From the UHGV virus genome UHGV-0129071: DNA of 35,863 nt, one strand, 5' to 3'. The position numbers and the translations under genes are program-made. Source of the stretch: a virus. Position 1 is the stretch's first letter. The number at the start of each line of letters is the position of its first letter. Positions 3,551-32,367 of this stretch are shown in pieces. The notes beneath the pieces are model-generated. The model was not told the origin of the DNA and made no database searches. It saw only the letters and a list, made by a program, of their open reading frames with translations.

Positions 3551-3703
3551 TCATTTCCTGCGATACCACGGAAGGTTGATAGCTGATTTCATCGCTTTAT
3601 TTGCTTCAAGCCACATTTTTGAATCACCAATAAATCTGGCTATTACTGCTTTGTTCTGTGCAGCACGAAGCATCTGGTGATTAATGGCTATTTCATTGCG
3701 CAT
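3551..3703 (-). CDS. kil: Kil-like small protein (50 aa), candidate host-division inhibitor
   Basis: 50-aa ORF immediately downstream of cIII (lambda gene order cIII-kil); contains ...ARFIGDSKMW... resembling recalled lambda Kil; overlaps cIII stop. Confidence 0.45.
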   Translation of the reverse strand: MRNEIAINHQMLRAAQNKAVIARFIGDSKMWLEANKAMKSAINLPWYRRK

Positions 3704-3819
3704 AATAAGACCTCAACTCTTTTCCATCCGTCACGTAATTTACGGGTGATTCGTTCAAGTAAAGATTCATTTAATTGGAAGGCACCCATGCGAGCGCCTC
3801 CCGCGATTGCGTAAATCAT
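3688..3819 (-). CDS. cIII: CIII (FtsH inhibitor, lysogeny establishment)
   Basis: 43-aa ORF MIYAIAGG...ESLLERITRKLRDGWKR matches the conserved central amphipathic helix of lambda CIII. Confidence 0.8.
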   Translation of the reverse strand: MIYAIAGGARMGAFQLNESLLERITRKLRDGWKRVEVLLCAMK

Positions 3820-3843: not shown

Positions 3844-4812
3844 TTAGTAGGTTATTTTTGTTGCGAATACTTCGCCTTTTACGATGGCTGTTATGATATT
3901 TTTAGCAACATCTTCTGATGCGCCAACCTTGATAAGGTCAGCAAGTATTTTGTTATTTACTTCTTTCTGGTGAGCTTTATCCTTTGCTCTACGCTCTTCT
4001 TCGTCCTTGATTCTTTTTTCTTCTGCTATTCTGGCTTGCTCTTTTGCTTCAGCCTCGCGCCTGATTCGTTCAGCCTCCTCCTGTGCTTTTCGGCGTTCTG
4101 CTTCAATTGCCGCCTGCTTTTCTCTTTCAGCTCGTTCTGCTGCCTCTTTTGCTTCGCGCTGTGCTCGTTGCTCGGCTTCAATGCGTTCACGCTCTGCACG
4201 TTCCGCTGCGGCCTTAGCTTCTGCTTCTCGCCTTGCTGCTGCTTCAATTTCGGCTTTTGCCTTTGCTTCGGCTTCTGCTCTGGCTTTCTCTTCAGCTTCT
4301 CTTTTTAAGCGTTCTTCATGCTCTCGCTTTTCCTGCTCCGCTTTGAGTCTTGCCTCTTCTCTTTGGCGGTCAAATTCGCGATCCATCAAAATCGCTATTT
4401 CATGGTCAGACTCAATTTGCTTTGCGAGAGCTTCAGCTGCTGCCTTAGCTTCTTCTTCGGCTTTAATCCGCGCCTGTTCTTCCTCATAATCAGTAAGAGG
4501 CTGGCGCGCCTTGGCTTTCAGTTCATCAAGGCGATCGCGCACTGTCTTGCGGTTAGCATCAATTAGCTTTGGAATTTCCTTCAGCTCAGCAACAAGGTCT
4601 TTGCCAAGACCATCGAGATATGTTTTCGTCTGCGCAACTTTATACGCCAGAGAAGCGATCTCCTTTCTGCCCTTTGCCGTTGTGATATCAGGCACAAAGG
4701 ACATAACTTCACGTTCAACCTTTTGAAGGATTTCTTCAATCTGGTCTGCAGACTGAAATACAGTCATTGCATTTGCTTTTTCAATAACAACTAAGTCTGT
4801 TACTTCACTCAT
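3844..4812 (-). CDS. coiled-coil protein with long E/A/K/R-rich low-complexity segment (DUF1351-like companion of Rad52-type recombinases)
   Basis: 322-aa ORF; about 150 residues of AEAKA/ERAERE repeats; located in recombination module. Confidence 0.55.
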   Translation of the reverse strand: MSEVTDLVVIEKANAMTVFQSADQIEEILQKVEREVMSFVPDITTAKGRKEIASLAYKVAQTKTYLDGLGKDLVAELKEIPKLIDANRKTVRDRLDELKAKARQPLTDYEEEQARIKAEEEAKAAAEALAKQIESDHEIAILMDREFDRQREEARLKAEQEKREHEERLKREAEEKARAEAEAKAKAEIEAAARREAEAKAAAERAERERIEAEQRAQREAKEAAERAEREKQAAIEAERRKAQEEAERIRREAEAKEQARIAEEKRIKDEEERRAKDKAHQKEVNNKILADLIKVGASEDVAKNIITAIVKGEVFATKITY

Positions 4813-4847
4813 ATATCCTCCTTAATTTGTATGCGTCAAATCCGCGC

Positions 4848-5159
4848 TCAGGCTGCTGAGGTTTCTTCTTTCAGGCTTTCGATATATTTACGTGGGTCGT
4901 CGTAACATTGGCATTCGCTGTACCAATCTACCCAGCGATCAGTAAGCCCCATCTCTGATAAATCTTCATCGGTAAGGCTCTCATTCCACATCTCAAGGCC
5001 GTTAGCATTGCAGTAATCAGGCTTGATGTTGTTGTCATACTGAAAGGCGTCATAATCAGCCAGTGCGTCCATCAGGCGAACACCCTCTTCAACACTTGCC
5101 ACTTCTACGATGAACGGCTTCATCGGTACTTGCGGGATATGCCAGACACGTAATTTCAT
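4848..5159 (-). CDS. hypothetical protein (103 aa)
   Basis: ATG at 5159 with GGAGAA SD (track ORF extends to 5213 without SD); acidic C-terminus. Confidence 0.5.
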   Translation of the reverse strand: MKLRVWHIPQVPMKPFIVEVASVEEGVRLMDALADYDAFQYDNNIKPDYCNANGLEMWNESLTDEDLSEMGLTDRWVDWYSECQCYDDPRKYIESLKEETSAA

Positions 5160-5312
5160 ATTTTCTCCGTTAAAAAAATCGCCCTCACACTGGAGGGCAA
5201 AGAAGATTTCCAATAATCAGAACAAGTCGGCTCCTGTTTAGTTACGAGCGACATTGCTCCGTGTATTCACTCGTTGGAATGAATACACAGTGCAGTGTTT
5301 ATTCTGTTGTTT

Positions 5313-5343
5313 ATGCCAAAAATGAAGGCCGACTATGTGGCCT
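5313..5343 (-). terminator. weak candidate rho-independent terminator downstream of membrane-protein gene
   Basis: On minus strand AGGCC-loop-GGCCT followed by TCATTTTTGG; short stem. Confidence 0.25.
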
Positions 5344-5347
5344 GAAA

Positions 5348-5713
5348 TTACTTAACCAATGATGCTGCATATTCGATAAGGTAAAGTTTTGGAGCAAGCC
5401 AGATTTTCAGCCAGTCGAAATAATTGAAGAAAACAACAATAGAAGTAATCGCTATTCCTGATGTTACAAGTAGCGATAAAAGAACAATATCCGCATCATC
5501 TCCTTTATTCCATGCAAAAATCATCAGATAAACACACGCTATAATCACCAATACACAGATAGCCTGAATTCCAGCTGATGATACGGCGTGCCACATCAAA
5601 AGCTGATGGATGACATCAGGAATCTGTGCCTGGCTAAATGAAACAGCCGCGTCTATTCCATTACTGGCTTTTTGCAGTAGTTCTACGAGAATCTTGTTTG
5701 CTTGTTCTTCCAT
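5348..5713 (-). CDS. small inner-membrane protein (121 aa, 2-3 predicted TM helices)
   Basis: Hydrophobic stretches (ICVLVIIACVYLMIFAW; LLSLLVTSGIAITSIVVFF); located between N and cIII where lambdoid phages carry exclusion/moron genes. Confidence 0.5.
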   Translation of the reverse strand: MEEQANKILVELLQKASNGIDAAVSFSQAQIPDVIHQLLMWHAVSSAGIQAICVLVIIACVYLMIFAWNKGDDADIVLLSLLVTSGIAITSIVVFFNYFDWLKIWLAPKLYLIEYAASLVK

Positions 5714-5772
5714 ATATCCCCTTGATTGTAATAAGCATGAAATTATTTACGGCCAAAAAATAAAGGCCACCA

Positions 5773-5973
5773 TCAGGCAGCCTTGTTGTTCTGTTTACCA
5801 AGTTCTCTGGCAATCATTGCCGTCGTTCGTATTGCCCATTTATCGACATATTTCCCATCTTCCATTACAGGAAACATTTCTTCAGGCTTAACCATGCATT
5901 CCGATTGCAGCTTGCATCCATTGCATCGCTTGAATTGTCCACACCATTGATTTTTATCAATAGTCGTAGTCAT
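5773..5973 (-). CDS. hypothetical Cys-rich small protein (66 aa)
   Basis: CGQFKRCNGCKLQSEC motif; ORF in leftward operon. Confidence 0.4.
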   Translation of the reverse strand: MTTTIDKNQWCGQFKRCNGCKLQSECMVKPEEMFPVMEDGKYVDKWAIRTTAMIARELGKQNNKAA

Positions 5974-6096
5974 AAGGATAGTCCTGGTATTGTTCCATCA
6001 CATCCTGGGGATGCTCTTCGAACTCTTCAAATTCTTCTTCCATATCTCACCTCAAATAAGTGGTTTGCTGCGAAAATAAATCCGCTTAAGTTACCT

Positions 6097-6234
6097 GTTA
6101 TTTATCCCACCAAGTTCCGTATCTATCTATCCAGTTACACCAATCATCGACACTCCATTTTGTCGTGTCGCATTTTGGCAACTGGCATGAATATCTACCT
6201 TCTTTGTAAAGTCGGCGTTTGACTTTCTTGAGCA
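6097..6234 (-). CDS. hypothetical small Cys-containing protein (45 aa)
   Basis: ATG at 6234 with GAGGTGA SD; not in ORF track; immediately downstream of N. Confidence 0.3.
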
Positions 6235-6243
6235 TGGCTCACC

Positions 6244-6549
6244 TCAATCGTAATAAGCTGGAATTGATTTTCCGCGTTGCTTCTGGCGGCCTGAGCAAGT
6301 CACACCCATTTCACAGCGTGGCTTGCGGTAGTAAATACGGTTCTGTTTACGCTCGACTTCATCTGCCTTCTTGCAGAGAAGGCTTCCGAGTGATGCTGCT
6401 TTGTCTGCTCTGACGCAACCAGAGAGCTTTAGCGCAATTTTTCGCGCCAGTCGCTGTTCTTGCATTGCCTGCTCACGTTGAGCCTGTCTGCGTGCTCTGC
6501 GGCGATTTCTGGCGTTATCGTCAGCCAGATATGTAATGACTACTGTCAT
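6244..6549 (-). CDS. N: antitermination protein N (phage 21-type)
   Basis: Arg-rich N-terminus (NARNRRRARRQAQREQ) and ...LARKIALKLSGCVRADKAASLGSL... recalled from phage 21 N; first gene downstream of PL/nutL. Confidence 0.8.
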   Translation of the reverse strand: MTVVITYLADDNARNRRRARRQAQREQAMQEQRLARKIALKLSGCVRADKAASLGSLLCKKADEVERKQNRIYYRKPRCEMGVTCSGRQKQRGKSIPAYYD

Positions 6550-6654
6550 GTTGACCTCCGATGATTGACTTTGGCGGTGACGCGCCGGGTGCTTATCTTC
6601 CGGTTGCCGTCGTGCAGCTGCACTTCACGCCACCCCAAAGCCAACTACTCTTTG

Positions 6655-6697
6655 GTTCCCGCATTTCGGCGGGACAATCCCATCAATGTTAAAGAGC
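6655..6697 (-). promoter_or_regulatory. nutL (boxA GCTCTTTAACA plus boxB hairpin)
   Basis: On minus strand GCTCTTTAACA (boxA consensus) followed about 12 nt later by hairpin TCCCGCCGAAATGCGGGA, between PL and N. Confidence 0.5.
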
Positions 6698-6742: not shown

Positions 6743-6771
6743 AAATTTAAGATCTCTTTAATTAATGGTCA
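6743..6771 (-). promoter_or_regulatory. PL promoter with overlapping OL operator
   Basis: Minus-strand TTGACC-17bp-TAAATT; operator-like ATTTAAGATCTCTTTAAT (6744..6761) fits the P22 operator pattern ANTNAAG-N4-CTTNANT. Confidence 0.5.
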
Positions 6772-6837
6772 AGAGTATTTTTGAAGAAAACTTAAATTTT
6801 CTTTCGTAACTTAAGTTTGGCTTTGATTTTTAAAGGA

Positions 6838-6863: not shown

Positions 6864-7514
6864 TTATGGAAGGTTTGCTAGTTTTGCATCGACAACTACG
6901 CCGATGATTTTGCAGTTTCCGTTGATCTCGATCATCGGATATTGTGGGTTAAGTGGTTTTAGAAACTTCCTGCCTGCATCAATAACTAACTTCTTGAAAG
7001 TTGCCTCGTTTTCTCCTTCGAGCTTTGCAACTACCAGTTTCCCGTTACGCGGCTCTACTTCAGGATCGACGAGTATTATCATTCCTTCAGGGATACTGAG
7101 ACCGGCCGGAGCCGTCATTGAGTCTCCCTTCACGTCCAACCAAAACGAATCTTCTGAACAGTCTACGGTTGTATCGTACCAGTTATCTATTGCACGCTTA
7201 TGATATGGTTCTACAGCTTCCATCCAGCATCCTGCGCTCACCCAGCTAATCAGAGGGTATGACCCTCTTGGATCATGCCTACTGTGATAGGCAATGTTTG
7301 AAAGACTTTCCTCTCCTTTCATCAGATAGTCAGGGGAACACTTCAACGCATTAGCCAGGGCGAGAAGATTCTCTCCATTTGGCTCTGTCTCAGAGCGTTC
7401 CCACTGAGATATGGCAACATTAGACACGCCGACCATCTTTCCAAGTGCGGCCTGCCTGATCTTGAGTTCTTTTCTCCGAGCGCGAATGCGCTCTCCCATC
7501 AATTGAGTTTTCAT
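6864..7514 (-). CDS. c2: C2 repressor (CI-type, HTH plus LexA-like S24 autopeptidase domain)
   Basis: 216-aa ORF MKTQLMGERIRARRKELKIRQAALGKMVGVSNVAISQWER... near-identical to recalled P22 C2; divergent from cro across operator region. Confidence 0.9.
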   Translation of the reverse strand: MKTQLMGERIRARRKELKIRQAALGKMVGVSNVAISQWERSETEPNGENLLALANALKCSPDYLMKGEESLSNIAYHSRHDPRGSYPLISWVSAGCWMEAVEPYHKRAIDNWYDTTVDCSEDSFWLDVKGDSMTAPAGLSIPEGMIILVDPEVEPRNGKLVVAKLEGENEATFKKLVIDAGRKFLKPLNPQYPMIEINGNCKIIGVVVDAKLANLP

Positions 7515-7780: not shown

Positions 7781-7888
7781 GCAAATTGCTCTTTAACAGT
7801 CATGGTCCTCATTCCCGCCGAAATGCGGGAATACAACGCGCATAAGTTGATGCGCATAACTTCTTATTTGTTAAGGAAATACTTACAT

Positions 7889-8182
7889 ATGGTTCGTGCA
7901 AACAAACGCAACGAGGCTCTAAGAATCGAGAGTGCGTTGCTTAACAAAATCGCAATGCTTGGAACTGAGAAGACAGCGGAAGCTGTGGGAGTTGATAAGT
8001 CGCAGATCAGCAGGTGGAAGAGGGATTGGATTCCAAAGTTCTCAATGCTGCTTGCTGTTCTTGAATGGGGCGTCGTCGACGACGATATGGCTCGATTGGC
8101 ACGACAAGTTGCTTCGATTCTCACCAATAAAAAACGCCCGGCGGCAACCGAGCGTTCTGAACAAATCCAGATGGAATTCTGA
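7889..8182 (+). CDS. c1: C1 (CII-type transcriptional activator)
   Basis: [46 protein letters not shown]... matches recalled P22 C1; start at internal ATG with AAGGAAA SD rather than track start 7802. Confidence 0.8.
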
Positions 8183-31581: not shown

Positions 31582-31971
31582 CTAACATTTTCTTTTTACT
31601 TTTCCAACAAAAGCTTTGGTTGAATCCATATTTCCATAACCGGAAATGGTTTTTGACATTAAAACTGTTCCAGTAGGATGTATTACCCATGAGTCGATAA
31701 CGCGTTGAGTTTCGCCATTCGCGCCGATTCCTATGATGGAGTTTTTAGACAATGCTTTGTAAGCCATGCCGCCCGCATCTGTCCCAGAATATGTGATGCT
31801 GGCATCTTCACCGCTTGTCTTAATGATGAATGTTCCACTAAAACCATCTTCTTCCGGATGGAAATTATTTCGTTCTGAATAGCTTATTCCGCGCATATCT
31901 CCAACGACCCAGCACTCTGCTGTAGCCCCAAAAGATATGAATAAGAACATAGCAGCAAGAAATTGCTTCAC
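31582..31971 (-). CDS. secreted/periplasmic protein with signal peptide (about 129 aa, GTG start)
   Basis: GTG at 31971 preceded by AAGGAGGT SD; N-terminal signal peptide (KQFLAAMFLFISFGATA-EC); AT-rich moron-like region. Confidence 0.45.
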   Translation of the reverse strand: MKQFLAAMFLFISFGATAECWVVGDMRGISYSERNNFHPEEDGFSGTFIIKTSGEDASITYSGTDAGGMAYKALSKNSIIGIGANGETQRVIDSWVIHPTGTVLMSKTISGYGNMDSTKAFVGKVKRKC

Positions 31972-32001
31972 ACCAACCTCCTTAGTTTTGAGCAGGATAC
32001 C

Positions 32002-32367
32002 ATGAAAAAAGTTAACATTGGAAACGTACCAAAGATGCTCGTTCCGCTCTTTGAGAGCGGTACAATTGTGTTTTGTAGAGACTTTCCAGAATGGCAACGC
32101 CTGCATCAAAAACTTGGCGTTGACGTGCATGACTCGGACGCCAACGGAGCGTCTCATACAATGAGTAGCGAGAATGGTGTTTTGCATGTGATAGGCGTGT
32201 TCAATGGCAAACTATCTACTATTGCCCATGAGTGCGCTCACATGGCATTCGATATCTGCTCAAGGGTAGGTGTTGATGTTGAACCAGGAAGAGCCAACGA
32301 GACTTACTGCTACTTAATGAGCAGGCTTGTTGAGTTCTGCGAGCGACATATCAAAAAGCCGGAGTGA
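32002..32367 (+). CDS. small HExxH-motif protein (121 aa), possible minimal zinc metallopeptidase-like
   Basis: ATG 32002; contains IAHECAHMAFDI (HExxH) after predicted beta-rich N-terminus; divergent from the secreted-protein gene. Confidence 0.4.
   Translation: MKKVNIGNVPKMLVPLFESGTIVFCRDFPEWQRLHQKLGVDVHDSDANGASHTMSSENGVLHVIGVFNGKLSTIAHECAHMAFDICSRVGVDVEPGRANETYCYLMSRLVEFCERHIKKPE

Follow-up and report, generated by a model that had tools for sequence, protein, structure and literature searches.

Ral accelerates the de novo methylation of unmodified DNA by the type IA systems EcoKI and EcoBI, acting via HsdM's N-terminal domain, and the outcome is that phage DNA is modified instead of cut (PMC12707154). 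Where the host has an active type I system, ral is conditionally essential (PMC10695390), and chromosomal pre-expression of Ral alone relieves lambda of restriction on MG1655 (Silas et al., bioRxiv 10.1101/2023.04.06.535777). Lar (RalR; PF14354), from Rac-type prophages, is unrelated to Ral in sequence and has been reported to be a DNase toxin as well (PMC4041452). For gene 17 of P22, the genome record notes that with it the phage is able to grow on a lysogen of phage Fels2, and the phenotype, escape from Fels-2 exclusion, is attributed to Semerjian et al. 1989 where that work is cited in PMC6486243. This exclusion was defined in Salmonella with Fels-2, and the phenotype is known for P22 only.

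The ral region is already recognised as a top-ranked, hypervariable accessory region, and it has been mined by experiment for counter-defence functions (bioRxiv 10.1101/2023.04.06.535777). The 200-gene screen in that study included Ral, a gene 17 homologue and a 121-aa protein identical to one discussed below, and reported a phenotype for Ral only; none is listed for the gene 17 homologue in E. coli, nor for the 121-aa protein expressed alone.

Here we compare with these systems a group of five small genes in a virus genome of 35,863 nucleotides (UHGV-0129071), the whole of which is referred to as the window. A sequence-only reading had described them as an uncharacterised cluster between N and cIII in the PL operon, with no recognisable family. 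We conclude, with a probability of roughly 0.88, that the region is the block of N-proximal accessory genes in the PL operon of a P22-like coliphage (Lederbergvirus; Sf6/N7/CUS-3-type), built as a mosaic of exchangeable genes.

Layout of the early left operon

The PL operon context of the cluster is borne out, with a PL-like promoter, nutL, N and cIII all located. The features are given from high to low coordinates:

7788-7828, plus strand: nutR, with boxA and boxB identical to those of nutL
6864-7514, minus strand: c2-type repressor gene, just upstream of the PL-like promoter
6744-6772, minus strand: predicted PL-like sigma-70 promoter, TTGACC, 17-nt spacer, TAAATT (promoter scan, 9/12 matches)
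6657-6697, minus strand: nutL, boxA GCTCTTTAACA and boxB hairpin TCCCGCCGAAATGCGGGA (boxA-spacer-boxB pattern)
6244-6549, minus strand: N-type antiterminator, 101 aa (PHROG 271, anti-termination protein N-like, 8e-35)
6098-6235, minus strand: 45-aa basic protein, DUF5484 (Pfam PF17583, PHROG 1871)
5957-6043, minus strand: orf28, 28-aa acidic peptide (identical to lambda orf28, PHROG 16060)
5773-5973, minus strand: ral, 66 aa (identical to lambda Ral, PF11058)
5763-5784, minus strand: predicted terminator-like hairpin with T-run, overlapping the ral stop codon (terminator scan, 9-bp stem)
5348-5713, minus strand: 121-aa protein with two transmembrane (TM) segments (PHROG 3054)
5326-5343, minus strand: predicted terminator-like hairpin 3' of the 121-aa gene (terminator scan)
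5179-5200, minus strand: predicted terminator-like hairpin with a T7 run, just upstream of gene 17 (terminator scan, 8-bp stem)
4848-5159, minus strand: gene 17 homologue, 103 aa (86% identity to P22 gp17, PF17420)
3844-4812, minus strand: 322-aa charged coiled-coil protein, homologue of Sf6 gene 33 (PHROG 1376, 7e-110)
3688-3819, minus strand: cIII (100% identical to Sf6 cIII; so annotated in Sf6 and in E. coli prophages)
3551-3703: kil

All five small ORFs exist, co-oriented on the minus strand between N and the 322-aa gene before cIII, with coordinates that differ by at most 2 nt from those given earlier, and each has a Shine-Dalgarno-like sequence. Their position between N and cIII stands, with the correction that the 322-aa gene is a sixth one before cIII that had gone uncounted. 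Its product has 99.7% identity to that of Sf6 gene 33 and matched no Pfam family, and N has 96% identity to N of phage N7. Closely downstream of the c2-type repressor gene is PL, an arrangement also seen in Sf6, N7 and P22. The window contains exactly two copies of the boxA-spacer-boxB pattern, nutL and nutR, against 0 expected in shuffles.

The promoters and terminators come from consensus scans only and are predicted elements. The promoter scan gave no internal promoter-like site within 4848-6235, and an Rfam scan of the whole window returned nothing at the gathering threshold. In Sf6, the hairpin that corresponds to the one at 5179-5200 lies upstream of gene 33 and is annotated as tL2A. Transcription of the block would begin at PL, N would act at nutL, and the modified polymerase would read through the internal hairpin terminators, so that the five proteins would be delayed-early products, made in lytic growth or after induction. 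We infer this PL- and N-dependent expression from the anatomy of the operon and from the lambda and P22 paradigm.

Pfam families are matched above threshold by three of the five proteins (Ral, GP17 and DUF5484) and PHROG families by all five, contrary to the earlier statement that none has a recognisable family. Homology to known families such as Ral, the outcome named in advance as speaking against that description, is what was found, and ral, cited there only to illustrate the contents of such regions, is itself one of the five genes. The description of the five as uncharacterised is likewise wrong, with established roles for Ral and gp17. The general idea that this early, N-antiterminated slot is home to host-takeover and anti-defence accessory genes was right. 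We found no evidence that contradicts the gene identities. No gene had a significant NCBIfam match, PADLOC-DB defence-system models gave no match with E < 0.03 for any of six proteins, and no solved structure was found by sequence for Ral, gp17 or DUF5484.

Ral and the overlapping orf28

With 100% identity to its lambda counterpart, the Cys-rich protein of 66 aa is Ral; it matches PF11058 at 162.5 bits (cutoff 25) over positions 1-66 of 66. Its four Cys residues, C11, C17, C20 and C26 (CX5CX2CX5C), are invariant in 20 diverse homologues. R49, T50, T51, M53, I54 and R56 are likewise invariant in these homologues, and the C-terminal IRTTAMIAREL helix is conserved. Judged by this identity, restriction alleviation here would be that known for the lambda protein.

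The 28-aa peptide, the sequence of which had been quoted exactly although its ATG is at 6043 and not 6045, is lambda orf28 (NP_040623; 28 of 28 residues identical; PHROG 16060, E 7e-19). With 12 Asp or Glu residues and no Lys or Arg, it has a net charge of about -12. The strong Shine-Dalgarno sequence claimed for it is present (GAGGTGA). As in lambda, orf28 overlaps the ral start by 17 nt, and the Shine-Dalgarno (AGGA) and ATG of ral sit within its 3' end. The orf28-ral pair (lambdap47 and lambdap46 in lambda) also shares its orientation and its place downstream of N with lambda, and the DNA shared with lambda reaches upstream of the orf28 ATG by no more than about 20 nt. The slot between N and orf28 is filled by sieB in lambda and by the DUF5484 gene here and in Sf6.

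Species-genome matches to diverged ral loci were mostly lambda DNA contamination in unrelated assemblies, and the diverged loci were therefore drawn from exact-protein look-ups and a degenerate DNA pattern. Among diverged orf28 orthologues, differences at codon positions 1, 2 and 3 number 22, 24 and 111, and pN/pS is 0.02-0.27 over a 15-codon core upstream of the ral overlap. The motif EHPxDDMxxYQDYP(Y/F) is retained from Escherichia to Erwinia, and six or more diverged lineages of Enterobacterales have the reading frame in overlap with ral. By this substitution pattern orf28 is a true gene, on which purifying selection acts.

The peptide is also found without ral downstream, with its DYDY-type tail still there. 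One lineage of metagenomic phages has a gene for an orf28-like peptide that overlaps a Lar-family gene at the 3' end of the latter, in parallel with the orf28-ral coupling, although the window has no Lar gene. This cassette of Lar and an orf28-like peptide had no match in the phage collection, and one E. coli genome matched its peptide part only. In the literature searched, orf28 appears only as a deletion marker, a non-essential gene (CRISPRi map) and a hypothetical protein; we found no functional study, and a paper derived from lambda ribosome profiling does not mention it.

The gene 17 homologue

The 103-aa protein is acidic, as had been stated (pI 4.2), and has 86% identity to P22 gp17 over 103 of 103 residues; it matches PF17420 (GP17) at 184.7 bits (cutoff 25) over positions 1-98 of 98. 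Length, operon and orientation upstream of cIII are shared with P22, but there gene 17 directly abuts c3, whereas here the 322-aa gene intervenes. A 121-aa version of this ORF with a TTG start, from the mechanical ORF listing, runs through the terminator-like hairpin and is not the gene.

By homology, the protein would probably allow escape from exclusion by a resident Fels-2-type prophage. The host of P22 is Salmonella whereas the host here is E. coli, and the Fels-2 target may be absent. An AF2 model shows a small alpha/beta fold (pLDDT 92, pTM 0.80), and a small acidic protein of this predicted kind would suit a stoichiometric inhibitor. In BFVD the model found gp17 family members only, and a likeness to the CdiI immunity protein was too weak to use. 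Public annotation names gp17 a 'superinfection exclusion protein'. This name is a misnomer, and it misleads because the P22 gene counteracts exclusion. The gp17 family is common in strictly virulent phages.

The DUF5484 and two-TM proteins

The 45-aa protein is 100% identical to the product of Sf6 gene 36 and matches PF17583 (DUF5484) at 46.7 bits (cutoff 27) and PHROG 1871 at 1.4e-22. Like orf28, it is preceded by a strong GAGGTGA Shine-Dalgarno sequence. The Cys residues that had been remarked on are present, but they are not conserved across the family, in which the conserved motif is KR..K.G.Y...P..DT..W...W..ID..G.W. Homologues occur in more than 1000 phage records, mostly of T-even phages, and identity among this phage, T-even phages and an Erwinia phage is 43-52%. 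With T4 gene 55.4 this level of identity extends over nearly the full length, and the size of about 43-48 aa is shared (52% identity to RB32 gene 55.4). However, in T-even phages gene 55.4 lies in the small-ORF cluster between nrdG and gene 55, not in a PL operon.

The 121-aa protein has hydrophobic segments at residues ~47-69 and ~76-96 by hydropathy, in agreement with its description as a membrane protein. It belongs over residues 1-121 to PHROG 3054, the Sf6 gene 34 family (E 9e-47), and has no Pfam, NCBIfam or PADLOC family. Its 574 homologues are all annotated as hypothetical, and the family is present in lambdoid, Vibrio, 145-kb coliphage and 70-kb podophage records. In a 20-sequence alignment, the N-terminal ~45 aa and a C-terminal DWLKIWLAPKLYLIEYA motif are conserved, whereas the TM hairpin is variable. 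The protein is identical to AEW47744.1, which is UDP0047 of Silas et al. Structure prediction, which had been proposed as a check, gave a confident alpha/beta fold for gp17, but the all-helical model of the 121-aa protein (pLDDT 78.5) is an uninformative helical hairpin with no match in the PDB at E < 1 (Foldseek).

Because virulent phages carry both, we suspect that the DUF5484 and two-TM proteins are host-takeover or counter-defence factors of the lytic cycle, not of lysogeny.

Assortment of the five genes

The order N, gene 36 (DUF5484), orf28, ral, gene 34-type TM gene, gene 33, cIII and kil is shared with Sf6 (genes 33-37) and N7 (ORF34-37), both of which are without gene 17. The gene order is common to annotated Sf6, N7, P22, lambda and one E. 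coli prophage. N7 has 98.5% identity over 82% of the interval, and Sf6 gene 34 is a 140-aa allele with just 53% identity to its 121-aa counterpart here. Coverage of 80% or more of the interval is reached by a single phage record, that of N7, and by two of 5426 complete E. coli genomes, one of which, on inspection, lists no DUF5484 gene. Of 80 IMG/VR loci that have an identical Ral, all carry orf28; DUF5484 is found at 12 of them, the two-TM gene at 8 and gene 17 at 3. The comparison of the N-to-cIII interval that had been called for thus shows that the genes assort independently and that only orf28 and ral are consistently linked. orf184, the ral-region gene of Silas et al. that triggers gop-beta-cII, is not among the genes of the window.

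Discussion

The cluster is a set of ordinary, already known accessory genes that are freely shuffled among P22-like and lambda-like phages. Counter-defence roles are established for Ral and gp17, and for orf28, the DUF5484 protein and the two-TM protein, which are conserved, roles can be proposed by inference only. As it stands the finding has little significance, given that the textbook ral region has been re-identified, with genes 86-100% identical to those of lambda, P22, Sf6 and N7. Its practical value is a corrected annotation that gives three of the genes their existing names, Ral, gene 17 and orf28.

The five genes are adjacent, co-oriented and predicted to be co-transcribed, as the parts of one new multi-component system acting as a unit might be, but this reading is exceedingly improbable in view of their independent assortment, the rarity of the complete set, the consistent linkage of orf28 and ral only, and the occurrence of three of the families apart from one another in unrelated virulent phages. 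It is highly improbable that the 28- and 45-aa ORFs are chance ORFs and not genes. Both are very short, and orf28, of 87 bases, is present in P22 but unannotated in its reference record; yet PHROG matches for five of five ORFs (E 7e-19 to 2e-57) exclude chance ORFs, and the conservation check proposed earlier came out positive, with a coding signature for orf28 that is conserved across genera and recognisable DUF5484 identity between distant phages. The strong Shine-Dalgarno sequences in front of both also argue against chance.

Another reading would make the block, and the two-TM protein above all, a prophage-expressed superinfection exclusion function of the SieB type and not a lytic counter-defence. 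In lambda and P22 sieB occupies the N-to-ral interval, the 121-aa product is a small membrane protein, there are PADLOC '2TM effector' matches that are weak and non-significant (E 0.06-0.09), and gp17 carries its exclusion label. We consider this improbable. The two-TM protein was rejected as a SieB relative (hhalign probability 0.14% against P22 SieB and 0.20% against lambda SieB, family profile), and SieB families are matched by none of the five ORFs in Pfam and PHROG searches; none of the five is a SieB fragment. Furthermore, the block is without an internal promoter-like site, strictly virulent phages, in which there is no lysogen to protect, commonly carry the two-TM and gp17 families, and P22 gene 17 works against exclusion.

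For orf28, our working inference is that it encodes a translated, selected peptide that is translationally coupled to Ral and acts in the same arena, the alleviation of type I restriction. It is unlikely that orf28 is a mere translational leader, in which translation ending 17 nt inside ral opens the ral start or delivers ribosomes to it and the peptide is functionless. The placement of the ral start signals within orf28 and the retention of the overlap in diverged lineages would fit a leader, as would the relief of restriction by pre-expressed Ral alone, from which it follows that the peptide is not obligatory for Ral activity. However, purifying selection acts on the peptide upstream of the overlap, its motif is conserved from Escherichia to Erwinia, and it occurs with an intact tail where there is no ral downstream.

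A function for Orf28, as an acidic micropeptide with a part in how phages evade type I restriction, is likewise doubtful, and we propose it only tentatively. Purifying selection, the overlap with ral in at least six lineages and the overlap with Lar in one leave room for such a role, while the occurrence of Orf28 alone and the activity of pre-expressed Ral without it speak against an obligatory one. Orf28 could partner or neutralise Ral and Lar, both small basic Cys4 proteins, or, alternatively, be a minimal DNA-mimic-like ligand of the restriction complex. Listed in the lambda record, orf28 behaves like a selected gene linked to restriction-alleviation genes, and it is possibly worth a small experiment.

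The early-left operon and its five small genes

The window is the genome, nearly complete, of a coliphage of the P22-like type (Lederbergvirus). Escherichia phage N7 matches the interval 4700-6600 at 98.5% identity across 82% of the interval, CUS-3 and Sf6 at ~96% across ~60%, and outside the interval there are a P22-type tailspike head-binding domain and Mnt/Arc, replication protein O, primase-helicase, Erf, SSB and Ea22-like genes.

Features of the early-left operon
6864-7514, minus strand: c2-type repressor
6772-6744, minus strand: PL-like promoter (consensus promoter scan)
6659-6697, minus strand: nutL, boxA GCTCTTTAACA and boxB hairpin (boxA/boxB pattern)
6244-6549, minus strand: N
6098-6235, minus strand: 45-aa ORF, Pfam DUF5484
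5957-6043, minus strand: 28-aa ORF, lambda orf28
5773-5973, minus strand: 66-aa ORF, Pfam Ral
5348-5713, minus strand: 121-aa ORF with two transmembrane (TM) segments, PHROG 3054
4848-5159, minus strand: 103-aa ORF, Pfam GP17
3844-4812, minus strand: 322-aa gene, Sf6 gene 33 homologue, PHROG 1376
3688-3819, minus strand: cIII, 3' of the 322-aa gene
3551-3703, minus strand: kil, following cIII

The sequence-only reading had placed a cluster of five uncharacterised genes between N and cIII. All five ORFs are present, each preceded by a Shine-Dalgarno-like sequence (read from the sequence), and the properties ascribed to three of the products agree with computed composition (12 acidic and no basic residues in the 28-aa peptide), pI (4.2 for the 103-aa protein) and hydrophobicity (two hydrophobic segments in the 121-aa protein). 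Some details need correction: the 28-aa ORF starts at an ATG at 6043, not 6045; the cluster does lie between N and cIII, but a sixth gene, of 322 aa, separates it from cIII; and the 45-aa protein contains Cys that are not conserved across its family. The statement that none of the genes has a recognisable family does not hold, as Pfam or PHROG matches assign all five, and none is a SieB fragment, a possibility that had been raised. Models of defence systems matched none of the five. The ORFs are therefore real and correctly read but not novel, the region being already known: in lambdoid and P22-like phages it is an accessory block, mosaic and dependent on N, which here comprises ral, gene 17 and three further conserved genes, all three already catalogued and the 121-aa one already screened.

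The exact boxA/boxB pair of nutL has one further copy in the window, nutR (7788-7828, plus strand), where the chance expectation is 0. Because nutR overlaps the 5' end of a mechanically called 126-aa cII/c1-type ORF (7802-8182), the true start of that gene is probably a downstream ATG; its N7 homologue is annotated at 366 nt (locus 5756-6121). The 322-aa protein is a highly charged coiled-coil protein rich in E, K, R and A, with no Pfam family. PGAP names its relatives variously 'cell envelope biogenesis protein TolA' or 'coiled-coil domain-containing protein', labels that are probably a low-complexity artefact. A 201-aa ORF (31582-32187, minus strand), with mnt on one side and the gene for the gene 16-like ejection protein on the other, occupies the position of sieA in P22 and has no Pfam match at E < 0.001.

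A mosaic rather than a single system

The five genes are a mosaic and not one system. Of 80 IMG/VR loci that each encode an identical Ral, all 80 carry orf28, 12 carry DUF5484, 8 the two-TM gene, 8 the 322-aa gene and 3 gene 17, in many combinations. Only one phage record, that of N7, spans 80% or more of the interval, and it lacks gene 17; 2 of 5426 complete E. coli genomes reach this coverage. The closest E. coli prophage has ral, the two-TM gene and gene 17, with no listed gene in the DUF5484 slot. When aligned, the window, lambda, P22 and Sf6 share sequence from ~20 nt before the orf28 ATG, and further upstream their flanks are of two unrelated types: a typical module junction.

Ral, gene 17 and the earlier screen

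The 66-aa protein scores 162.5 bits against Pfam Ral and has 100% identity to the lambda protein. EcoKI and other type IA enzymes methylate the first strand of an unmodified target faster when Ral is present (PMC12707154); ral is dispensable where the host lacks type I restriction and matters on MG1655 and C3000 (PMC10695390). A lambda-identical ral also occurs in assemblies labelled Shewanella, Pseudomonas, Neobacillus, Oceanobacillus, Kitasatospora, Bradyrhizobium and others (loci L086-L101, L104, L106, L107 and L109), some on contigs of ~48.4-48.5 kb, and is almost certainly contamination with lambda DNA.

The 103-aa protein matches Pfam GP17 (184.7 bits) and, over its full length, P22 gene 17 (86% identity); family members also occur in N4 (gp18), Vi1/CBA120-type myoviruses and others. 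P22 requires gene 17 for growth on a Fels-2 lysogen, according to the P22 record and to Semerjian et al. 1989 (as cited in PMC6486243). Gene 17 therefore counteracts exclusion, and the database name 'superinfection exclusion protein' is misleading.

Silas et al. ranked phage accessory regions by variability, with 'Ral'-labelled regions among the top scorers (Supplementary File 2), and three entries of their 200-gene library are relevant here (bioRxiv 10.1101/2023.04.06.535777): UDP0087, Ral, and UDP0047 (AEW47744.1), the 121-aa protein, are identical to the window proteins, and UDP0144, gene 17 of ST64T, is ~92% identical. Ral was a type I anti-restriction hit in that screen; orf47 and orf144 are absent from its list of genes with phenotypes. 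The ral-region gene orf184, which triggers the gop-beta-cII abortive system in the same study, is not present in the window.

DUF5484 and the two-TM protein

The 45-aa protein (DUF5484, 46.7 bits) is identical to Sf6 gene 36, whose record notes similarity to T4 gene 55.4, and has homologues in more than 1000 phage records, the majority T-even. The 121-aa protein belongs to PHROG 3054 (E 9e-47), together with Sf6 gene 34 and N7 ORF35. This family has at least 574 members, every one labelled 'hypothetical' and none with a Pfam domain, in temperate enterobacterial phages, Vibrio phages, 145-kb coliphages and 70-kb Salmonella/Shigella podophages. In the family alignment the first 45 residues and a C-terminal motif, DWLKIWLAPKLYLIEYA, are near-invariant, unlike the TM hairpin that joins them, which differs in both length and sequence. 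Crossing the membrane twice would put the conserved ends on one side of it, which suggests that they form the functional surface. The predicted model is all-helical, and a search for structural neighbours gave nothing informative.

orf28 as a conserved companion of ral

The 28-aa peptide and the product of lambda orf28 (lambdap47) are 100% identical, and the gene overlaps ral by 17 nt in the window, as it does in lambda. P22 encodes the same peptide, unannotated, at NC_002371.2 29530-29613, minus strand (5031-5114 in our P22 locus, L005), again with 100% identity to lambda, whereas the Ral proteins of the two phages are only 74-77% identical. Orthologues precede diverged ral genes in Providencia (MEEDIEEFDEHPDDDMRQYQDYPYEYDY), Proteus, Pantoea, Erwinia and Kluyvera. 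In pairwise comparisons of a 15-codon core that precedes the ral start, differences number 22, 24 and 111 at codon positions 1, 2 and 3, and pN/pS is 0.02-0.27; the peptide sequence is therefore selected. One Citrobacter lineage has no such orthologue: in its prophages (L116 2804-3004, L117 2498-2698) an unrelated 66-aa ORF (MAKITFGFCSAEKAH...) with no Pfam family takes the place of orf28, and its stop shares 4 nt (ATGA) with the ral ATG. Here too, then, ral is translationally coupled to a small gene upstream of it, albeit a different one.

Pre-expressed Ral works by itself and therefore does not strictly require Orf28 as a co-factor. In the papers searched, orf28 features only as a deletion marker and as a lambda gene that is hypothetical and not essential. 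A search for the non-lambda variant by degenerate DNA pattern matched 27 viral contigs, in which the orf28-like gene overlaps a downstream Ral gene (12), overlaps the 3' end of a gene for a 77-aa Cys4 protein (9) or has neither a Ral nor a Lar neighbour (6). The Cys4 protein matches Pfam Lar_restr_allev (36.6 bits, cutoff 28.6). The nine Lar-type contigs are mostly 87-99% identical to one another (73-83% for L127) and so count as about one lineage. The linkage of orf28 to two unrelated restriction-alleviation families is suggestive, and could be positional.

Some gene calls in public assemblies join orf28 and ral into one, whether through assembly error or as a true variant. P0001, which represents 76 member sequences, and P0005 are 89 aa long, and their fusion looks like the product of a 1-nt deletion in CAGGAC; in P0011 (85 aa) an in-frame deletion joins ...DYDY to WCGQF. 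In the metagenomic viral contig L141, the Lar-family gene (PF14354) and the orf28-like acidic peptide gene overlapping its 3' end form a small cassette (5074-5430), also found in L122, L126, L133, L135, L139, L142 and L144. The cassette looks like a moron, and in L141 is flanked by two copies of one terminator-like hairpin, GGCTGCCTAACCCGCAGCC, at 5074-5092 and 5412-5430.
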